In this document: piece by piece, positions 36,476-36,692 of the stretch | Position numbering within the stretch: the first letter of the stretch is position 1 | Layout of the letters: each line of letters starts with the position of its first letter | UHGV virus genome: UHGV-0017337 | DNA: 43,119 nucleotides | Source: a virus | Direction: 5' to 3' (one strand) | Notes under the pieces: model-generated | What the model was told of the DNA's origin: nothing | Seen by the model: the letters and a program-made list of their open reading frames with translations, nothing else | The model's database searches: none | Made by a program: the position numbers and the translations under genes

Positions 36476-36692
36476 TAGACAAGATACCTGACCAAGTATG
36501 TAGTAACCCGGAATTGTCCGGCTGAAGATACCGCTGATTGTCAGGCGCTACTGTGAGTATAAAGCGTAACTCACCCCACGAAATCACACACTATGCACCA
36601 TCTGGTTGGATGGTGGTTCCTGCGGGGATTGTGAAATTAGTTGCGACGGGTTGAAGAGATATCTTGTCACTAAGTAAAAAAAGGTAAATATT
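36476..36692 (+). promoter_or_regulatory. Long structured 5' leader downstream of P7
   Basis: About 215 nt without an ORF. A 9-bp closing helix pairs 36478-36486 with 36660-36668. Internal hairpins: 36508-36521, 36534-36544, 36553-36574 and 36596-36615. Confidence 0.45.

Follow-up and report, generated by a model that had tools for sequence, protein, structure and literature searches.

A conserved 197-nt element, predicted to form a structured RNA, at the start of an early transcript in 9NA-like phages

Closest described systems and the element

In virulent enterobacterial phages, structured non-coding RNAs have to our knowledge hardly been explored, and only a few are known to work without a dedicated protein partner. 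The put RNAs (putL and putR) of the lambdoid phage HK022 are cis-acting antiterminator RNAs of about 70 nt, composed of two stem-loops. We here describe a 197-nt element at positions 36474–36670 (+ strand) of UHGV virus genome UHGV-0017337, a stretch of viral DNA of 43,119 nt (the window) that represents most of the genome of a 9NA-like siphovirus, with relatives classed as Nonanavirus or Sashavirus. The element is predicted to form a structured RNA and resembles put in being placed just after an early sigma-70 promoter of a siphovirus, in having no phage protein partner, in its narrow phylogenetic distribution and in apparently not being a riboswitch; its conserved block also starts, in the position of a put RNA, at the predicted +1 of the transcript. 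It differs from put, compared by description, in its length of 197 nt, its closing helix and its at least five hairpins. Furthermore, the same promoter is in use in sister phages that lack the element, and no internal terminators that such an RNA could read through were found, as a simple scan of the + strand over 36693–40665, with Rho-dependent sites beyond its reach, revealed nothing terminator-like after the element.

The C4 RNA of phages P1 and P7 and the CI RNA of P4 are likewise small structured phage RNAs that derive from leaders and act independently, although release of the present element from its transcript is our proposal. Those RNAs are 70–80 nt long, tRNA-like and pair with sites later in the same operon, whereas the element is not tRNA-like and has no conserved target. 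An identity as tRNA, tmRNA or tRNA-like RNA was rejected because ARAGORN found no such gene in the window, and a leader-derived antisense RNA of the P1 C4/P4 CI type was rejected because the phage genome holds no conserved complementary target. Stabilisers of 5' ends, such as the ompA-type hairpin, and the early RNase III sites R1–R5 of T7 share with the element a helix at the extreme 5' end, a rod (here of about 22 bp) and, for T7, a place in phage early mRNA, but they span 20–60 nt and tolerate sequence change, while the element spans 197 nt and is nearly invariant. Enterobacterial repetitive intergenic consensus (ERIC) sequences and miniature inverted-repeat transposable elements (MITEs) are similar in being about 130–200 bp long, in having terminal inverted repeats, in being transcribed from intergenic sites and in folding as RNA. 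The element also has terminal inverted repeats, of 12 nt, yet it occurs as one copy per phage at one fixed locus and is absent from host genomes, including those of E. coli, and from plasmids, so that this identity was rejected. A packaging RNA of phi29 type was discarded as well, since Rfam gave no match, TerS is present and phages having the same TerL package without the element. The pairing of its ends is only superficially similar to the a1/a2 repeats of a retron msr-msd; the cassette proteins have no reverse transcriptase domain, no gene co-occurs with the element, and no reverse transcriptase is annotated in 9NA, PJ16, Sasha, Carvaje or KPN_H2.

The element also resembles the orphan intergenic RNA motifs of phages and prophages (Weinberg et al. 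2017, PMC5737381) in being a conserved, covarying, non-coding motif in an early or accessory region; the difference is that it matches none of the 4,227 models of Rfam 15. At gathering level the whole 43-kb window was without a match, and in 9NA, KPN_H2 and BDX09P1 no match overlapped the element. Running cmscan against Rfam had been suggested in a preliminary description of the locus, and no known family was matched even at E values up to 10. A permissive search of 36400–36720 returned only DUF2815 (20 bits against 41, in the region of the ribosome-binding site, RBS) and a snoRNA (E value 5). We therefore place the element among the structured RNA motifs of phage early transcripts, a known kind, as a new family with a very narrow distribution.

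The preliminary description had drawn attention to an unusually long leader behind this promoter, and the comparison with the other promoter copies of the window bore this out. Transcription is predicted to start at A36475, 7–8 nt past the −10, leaving about 215 nt before the ATG at 36693. In the eight other copies the first ATG lies about 55–75 nt from the −35, with leaders of about 20–35 nt, and the long leader is thus unique to the copy at 36439–36467.

Conservation, covariation and predicted fold

To compare homologous leaders, we took the intergenic region next to terL and aligned the sequence of the window with those of four Escherichia-type copies, of 9NA/Solent and of three Klebsiella-phage copies; the element is known in eight distinct sequences from three lineages. 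The conserved block was sharply bounded, running from CATAGACAAG (36474), located 1–2 nt from the predicted +1, to GUCAC (36670), 2 nt beyond the 3' strand of the closing helix P1. Within this block the window was 93% identical to 9NA and 93% identical to KPN_H2, compared with 69 and 57%, respectively, at the third codon positions of terL, 73 and 70% in the adjacent promoter spacer and terL 5' untranslated region (UTR), and 36 and 34% in the sequence past 36670 (Fisher tests for the element against third positions, p 1e-12 to 1e-23, and against promoter and UTR, p 5e-6 to 2e-7). The three lineages of the element mirrored the three lineages of terL and, because the spacer and −10 had also diverged normally, purifying selection on a vertically inherited unit explains the block better than recent transfer.

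The substitutions that separate the lineages included compensatory changes in three base pairs of three different helices. In P1 a G-C pair has become A-U at 36483/36663 in the Klebsiella-phage lineage; in hairpin H3 a G-C pair is A-U in 9NA, and the Klebsiella lineage shows a change from G-C to G-U; in H4 one pair is seen as C-G, U-G and U-A, with two further wobble changes in the same hairpin. No compensatory change was obtained when the partners were slid by 1–3 columns. Five further pairs varied only in a one-sided and wobble-compatible manner, and in H5 of 9NA G-U has become A-U and U-G has become U-A. In total, 99.1% of 432 cells were paired, and 7 cells were doubly changed, compared with 2.4 ± 1.4 in shuffles. 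Conservation in relatives and covariation in homologous leaders, the two comparisons that the preliminary description had proposed, thus both came out in its favour.

The variable pairs also carried information on the strand, since the G-U wobbles would be C-A mismatches on the other strand, so that the wobble changes favour the + strand. There were three non-canonical cells in the + strand consensus and eight on the minus strand, where H5 is lost. We assigned the element to the + strand because of this wobble pattern, the orientation of the promoter and the 5' boundary of the block. That the minus strand should instead be functional, as the structured 5' leader of a terL transcript starting upstream of the element, we regard as highly improbable, the least probable of the explanations weighed here. 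It is true that the minus strand folds with a z score of −2.96, none of 200 shuffles folding as well, that its consensus fold has a similar number of pairs with the same three compensatory pairs, and that terL needs a promoter while no sigma-70-like one was found on the minus strand. Such a leader would however have no conserved sequence beyond 36670 in which its promoter could lie, the flank there being different in each lineage; non-carriers transcribe terL from the shared region of about 110 bp; six of the wobble positions become mismatches; and the conserved block begins exactly at the start site of the + strand. Judged by these sequence comparisons, 36474–36670 is an RNA domain under strong purifying selection as + strand RNA.

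With regard to its fold, the preliminary description had proposed a domain closed by pairing of its 5' and 3' ends and containing at least four hairpins. We found the domain to begin at the predicted transcription start, with GACAAGATA (36478–36486) perfectly complementary over 9 nt to TATCTTGTC (36660–36668), a match that extends to 12 nt at 92% and for which the rough chance expectation is about 0.015; this helix is P1, one of the three in which compensatory changes were seen. The four hairpins located in that description were also present (36508–36521, 36534–36544, 36552–36575 and 36596–36615), and the consensus fold added H5 (36616–36629), the enclosing helix P5 and an irregular extension of P1 (Table 1). 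The pairs of this extension were invariant except for two single-sequence breaks, and RNAalifold placed H2 in the register 36532–35/36544–47. An alternative helix between CCUGAC (36487–92) and GUCAGG (36540–45) could pair in all eight sequences, one C-to-U change keeping a G-U pair; it competes with H2 and crosses the predicted rod, and could be a pseudoknot or an alternative conformer. The unpaired segments were near-invariant too (for example CCAAGUAUGUAGUAAC, CCACGAAAUCACAC and GUGAAAUUAGUUGCGACGGGUUGAAGAG), which suits a specific tertiary fold or binding surface, whereas a generic protective hairpin would not need it. An invariant start-stop run, AUG-UAG-UAA at 36498–36506, is partly unpaired in the prediction and has no obvious Shine-Dalgarno sequence upstream.

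The comparison of folding energy with shuffled sequence, also suggested earlier, had a borderline outcome: the z score was −1.35 for 36476–36692, −1.58 when the element was folded by itself, and −2.10 for its copy in 9NA. As folding energy is weak evidence, the case for the element is based on conservation and covariation.

The leader had further been described as free of open reading frames (ORFs). Mechanical ORFs do exist, including one of 38 amino acids on the + strand, but none is conserved, and stops or frameshifts were seen in all six frames among the eight homologs. In 9NA and the Klebsiella phages, the one ORF of appreciable size on the + strand is disrupted by a 1-nt indel that falls in the loop of H4; a stop interrupts the minus-strand frame in one IMG/VR copy, and the variable columns showed no codon periodicity (13/12/10). 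This six-frame comparison ruled out protein coding by the 38-amino-acid ORF, by an upstream extension of the terL frame and by a 44-amino-acid ORF annotated in Solent.

Table 1. Positions of the element, its predicted helices and the surrounding features in the window
Feature	Position	Strand	Description
Early sigma-70 promoter	36425–36467	+	A/T-rich upstream block TTTAAAATAATTC; −35 TTGACA at 36439–44; −10 TATATT at 36462–67
Structured RNA element (predicted)	36474–36670	+	197 nt; predicted start A36475 among its first bases; covariance model 244 bits, no second match in the window
Closing helix P1, 5' strand	36478–36486	+	GACAAGAUA; pairs with 36660–36668
Closing helix P1, 3' strand	36660–36668	+	UAUCUUGUC; pairs with 36478–36486
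Closing-helix extension, 5' strand (P1a, P2, P3/P4)	36488–36507	+	Irregular; pairs with 36640–36658; from RNAalifold; weakest-supported part
Closing-helix extension, 3' strand	36640–36658	+	From RNAalifold
Hairpin H1	36508–36521	+	CCGG, 6-nt loop, CCGG; stem invariant, substitutions in the loop
Hairpin H2	36534–36544	+	CUGA-UUG-UCAG; no informative variation
Hairpin H3	36552–36575	+	7-bp stem, 10-nt loop
Sub-domain	36584–36634	+	P5 (36584–88/36630–34) encloses H4 (36596–36615, 7 bp) and H5 (36616–36629, 5 bp)
Linker	36671–36692	+	Variable, A/U-rich; carries the RBS of the first ORF; beyond the end of the conserved block, with no pairing predicted; 34–47% identity to relatives
First cassette ORF	36693–37016	+	107 amino acids; function unassigned; no linkage to the element
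RdgC	38994–39911	+	PF04381
Tad2-like protein	40059–40325	+	PF11195
terS	41249–41944	−	phrog_51; beyond the cassette
terL	34599–36362	−	Divergent from the leader; ATG at 36362; context, outside the element

Distribution and possible roles of the element

The element was carried by 11 GenBank records, namely 9NA (two records), Sergei, Solent, BDX09P1, 536P12, phi_KPN_H2, phi_270, e270.1, e270.2 and KP13-27. It was also present in one ENA metagenome contig (ERZ1035001) and in three contigs of IMG/VR, among them 9NA itself. No copy occurred in 5,426 complete E. coli genomes, in 72,556 PLSDB plasmids or in 185,579 GTDB representative genomes, two 18-mer matches in GTDB being due to chance. More remote homologs were sought by scanning IMG/VR, JGI metagenomes and GTDB for exact patterns, and by applying nhmmer and the covariance model to 79 TerL-linked IMG/VR loci. 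These searches revealed none in the 79 loci or in non-carrier genomes; only near-identical copies were gained, in ERZ1035001 and two IMG/VR contigs, and the extra 16–18-mer matches were due to chance.

Non-carriers comprised Sasha, AVIO78A, SP069, Carvaje, PJ16 and several IMG/VR contigs, the latter with a TerL N-terminus 100% identical to that of the window. In these the same promoter is directly followed by a small ORF, with an intergenic distance of about 135 bp as compared with about 330 bp in carriers, and all three host groups included carriers as well as non-carriers. What follows the element also varied, the first gene encoding 107 amino acids in the window, 202 in 9NA, 93 in KPN_H2 and 62 in KP13-27, and the same downstream genes were found behind other sequences in non-carriers (e.g. 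loci L027, L028 and L036). When four carrier and three non-carrier genomes were compared, no ORF of at least 40 amino acids and no other 80-bp DNA window co-occurred with the element, a window at 9NA 48841 being a threshold artefact. A dedicated phage-encoded ribonucleoprotein partner was rejected on the same comparison, as no gene segregated with the element. By its distribution in the genomes compared, the element is an optional module that, in some of the 9NA-like phages, fills the first 'gene slot' after the promoter, and it is, on the same sequence comparisons, tied neither to a particular downstream gene nor to TerS/TerL or any other phage gene.

Its constraint is unusual, with about 93% identity kept over 197 nt where neutral sites have diverged by 30–45%, and at the same time it is dispensable, as there are sister phages without it. 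Constraint combined with dispensability is typical of accessory functions in host interaction or counter-defence. Because the element behaves as an independent accessory gene in which stems, loops and junctions are all constrained, we infer that the RNA itself is the functional product. The reading we tentatively favour, while regarding it as far from settled, is that of an RNA acting in its own right, as an autonomous accessory module that binds a host factor or a core phage factor. Host sigma-70 polymerase would start at the promoter at 36439–36467 within minutes of the onset of infection, and the early transcript would open with the 197 nt of the element, a non-coding accessory 'gene'. The RNA would fold with its ends paired (P1 of 9 bp and the irregular rod) around a branched head with at least four hairpins, and it may either stay as a stable 5' domain of the mRNA or be freed by cleavage in the linker at 36671–36692. 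A small RNA released from the 5' end, as had been suggested in the preliminary description, would fit the evidence. Its binding partner early in infection would be a factor of the host, or else a core phage factor that all members share, and its purpose would be host take-over or counter-defence, as with the small protein genes occupying this slot in other relatives; the RNA would not sense a ligand in order to switch the downstream gene, and the DNA would not serve as a packaging site.

Several points weigh against this interpretation. Both ends of the element RNA, and its stability, are predictions. The folding energy is not clearly better than that of shuffled sequence, and the minus strand folds at least as stably. 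With only eight sequences in three lineages the covariation is suggestive and not statistically decisive, and the rod P2–P4 and H2, with three single-sequence breaks, are without positive support. No partner or target was found among the genes and sequences compared, and the best complementarities in the phage genome were not conserved together with the element. Finally, the element always lies at the transcription start with an ORF within 10–25 nt, which fits a cis-acting leader equally well.

Such a leader, serving the whole transcript, is the main rival and a serious one, which we place only slightly lower, as less likely than not. It could act by protecting the 5' end or the transcript from Rho, as a processing site for RNase III or RNase E in the rod of about 22 bp, or as a nascent RNA that modifies the polymerase. 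Besides the constant position at the very 5' end, with P1 beginning about 4 nt from the predicted start, it would account for the fact that a long untranslated leader needs structure against Rho, and the lack of a co-occurring phage partner gene would agree with an RNA acting alone or with host machinery. On the other hand, the eight other promoter copies, as well as the non-carrier relatives, drive similar cassettes with leaders of 20–35 nt; a protective or processing hairpin leaves the near-invariance of 197 nt, loops and junctions included, unexplained; the scan of 36693–40665 gave no terminator-like site needing antitermination; and the architecture is unlike that of the two-stem put RNAs. 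The preliminary description had linked the leader specifically to control of a cassette encoding RdgC and a Tad2-like protein. This was not upheld, as the downstream gene differs among carriers and relatives express comparable cassettes, RdgC included, without the element.

A riboswitch, or another leader that senses a ligand or protein to switch the downstream gene or genes, had also been suggested, and this we now find improbable. A closed P1 around a multi-branch junction in a 5' UTR is indeed the classic architecture of an aptamer, the junctions and loops are very highly conserved, and two mutually exclusive pairings (36540–45 with 36487–92, or H2) are compatible with all sequences. In addition, the 3' half of H5/P5 (36623–36635) could, in the window's own lineage, pair with codons 3–7 of the first ORF (36701–36713), the two segments showing 85% complementarity over 13 nt. 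Against a switch stands the absence of any Rfam class, of a terminator and of a conserved platform that masks the RBS; the RBS of the first ORF is unpaired in both minimum free energy and centroid folds, and pairing between the element and the downstream initiation region was not consistent across carriers but lineage-specific, with z scores from −4 to +1. With at least four unrelated first genes among the carriers there is also no coherent regulon. The complementarity to codons 3–7 was seen only in the lineage that has this ORF (the window, BDX09P1 and two metagenome contigs), where it could have a local effect in cis.

The location between terS and terL, directly upstream of terL, raises the question of an element acting as DNA, either as a pac site or part of one, as an origin or priming signal, or as a miniature inverted-repeat mobile insertion. 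Phage 9NA reportedly uses a pac site for packaging, the cleavages being scattered across about 170 bp, and the 12-nt terminal inverted repeats together with the presence or absence of the element as a unit could be taken in support of a DNA function. We nevertheless hold this to be very improbable. The TerS of PJ16 is 99.6% identical to that of the window, yet PJ16 has no element according to the covariance model, and the TerS of Sasha, which lacks the element, and those of Sergei/Solent, which have it, are each 93.5% identical to the window's TerS. A pac site, proposed in the preliminary description as a packaging signal, is accordingly unlikely as judged from the co-variation of TerS and element rather than from direct mapping. 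Substitutions that preserve G-U pairs on one strand would moreover not be expected of sites in duplex DNA, the internal hairpins covary although the ends of a mobile element would not need them, and there is one copy per genome at a fixed locus, with none in the E. coli, plasmid and GTDB sets.

Returning to an RNA that acts in its own right, a bolder version would make the element a new class of phage effector RNA, in which a compact 197-nt fold would disable, or turn to its own use, some host component that is conserved in Escherichia, Salmonella and Klebsiella alike. We consider this unlikely in such a specific form, although less so than a riboswitch. Candidates for that component would be nucleases, nucleotide signals and RNA-binding proteins of defence or surveillance, and the element would do as an RNA what small anti-defence proteins of the same early cassettes, the Tad2-like one for example, do as proteins. 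A literature search on non-coding RNAs of 9NA-like phages and on phage RNA decoys gave nothing relevant. Action in trans would add an RNA effector to the accessory repertoire of phages, and action in cis would make the element an early-transcript leader of a new type. Natural carriers and non-carriers are available on E. coli, on Salmonella (9NA and Sergei/Solent versus Sasha) and on Klebsiella, and the bounds set by promoter and helix ease experimental testing.

Promoter copies and neighbouring genes

The promoter in front of the element, with a spacer of 17 nt and a score of 11/12, was the top sigma-70 match in the scanned region of 33–43 kb. Its −35 and upstream (UP) part was unchanging across relatives, while the spacer and −10 were variable. 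The motif AAAATAATTCTTGAC(A/G) had nine full-promoter copies in the window, compared with 1.2 expected by chance, and the extended promoter module reads TTTAAAATAATTCTTGAC(A/G)nATT(A/G)CA, with an A/T-rich upstream part. The copies are found at 14485, 24385 (minus strand), 24676, 28537, 29679, 32775, 36429, 38105 and 40694. Each heads a small cassette, many of them oriented against the flanking virion genes, and it is plausible that the promoter repeats serve as recombination points for cassette mosaicism between relatives. Two 12-mers (24751–24762 and 25852–25863) are perfectly complementary to the invariant element segment AGUAUGUAGUAACCC, and the first of them spans codons 2–5 of the small ORF behind the copy at 24676. 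Both occur in PJ16 and Sasha, which do not carry the element, and neither in its carriers 9NA and KPN_H2, and they are probably due to chance.

The region 36300–36800 was matched by 24 phage records, with hosts in Escherichia, Salmonella and Klebsiella. From 36693 a + strand cassette of small early genes extends to a GC-rich bidirectional terminator at 40666–40685, which closes the first part of the cassette and is immediately followed by a promoter copy. The cassette forms an opposite-strand insert between terS and terL, and the layout is the same in 9NA, where gp1 is the TerS homolog, gp2–gp10 constitute the cassette and gp11 is TerL. A separate minus-strand terminator at 41166–41179 follows terS and, as a consequence of these two terminators, simple read-through does not join terS and terL in one transcript.

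A near-invariant 25-bp motif, GTAACTGTTCTGTACAGTTTACCAC (36379–36403), which includes the palindrome CTGTACAG, is located in the interval from the ATG of terL to the early promoter. It occurs once in the window and is kept in carriers and non-carriers from all three host genera. As no sigma-70-like promoter for terL was found on the minus strand, this motif is a candidate for a late promoter, for the site of an activator or for a site connected with packaging.

Two existing annotations at this locus are to be corrected. The terL frame is mechanically open for 75 codons upstream of the real ATG (36363–36587, minus strand), but this extension is not conserved and relatives show frameshifts or stops in it. 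In Solent, the 44-amino-acid 'hypothetical protein' CPT_Solent_018 (L001:1559-1693) overlies the promoter and the 5' end of the element and is not conserved either. Both are probably annotation artefacts and not genes.

Two further observations concerned other parts of these genomes. The gp10 coding region of 9NA (L002:2241-2452) gave a weak match to Rfam isrG, an Hfq-binding small RNA (28 bits against a gathering threshold of 100, E value 2e-4), which probably reflects a shared prophage-like coding sequence and not a small RNA. In Klebsiella members, finally, a tRNA-Ser was located downstream of the major capsid gene region, in KPN_H2 at L118:12369-12456 and in Carvaje at L120:14299-14383.

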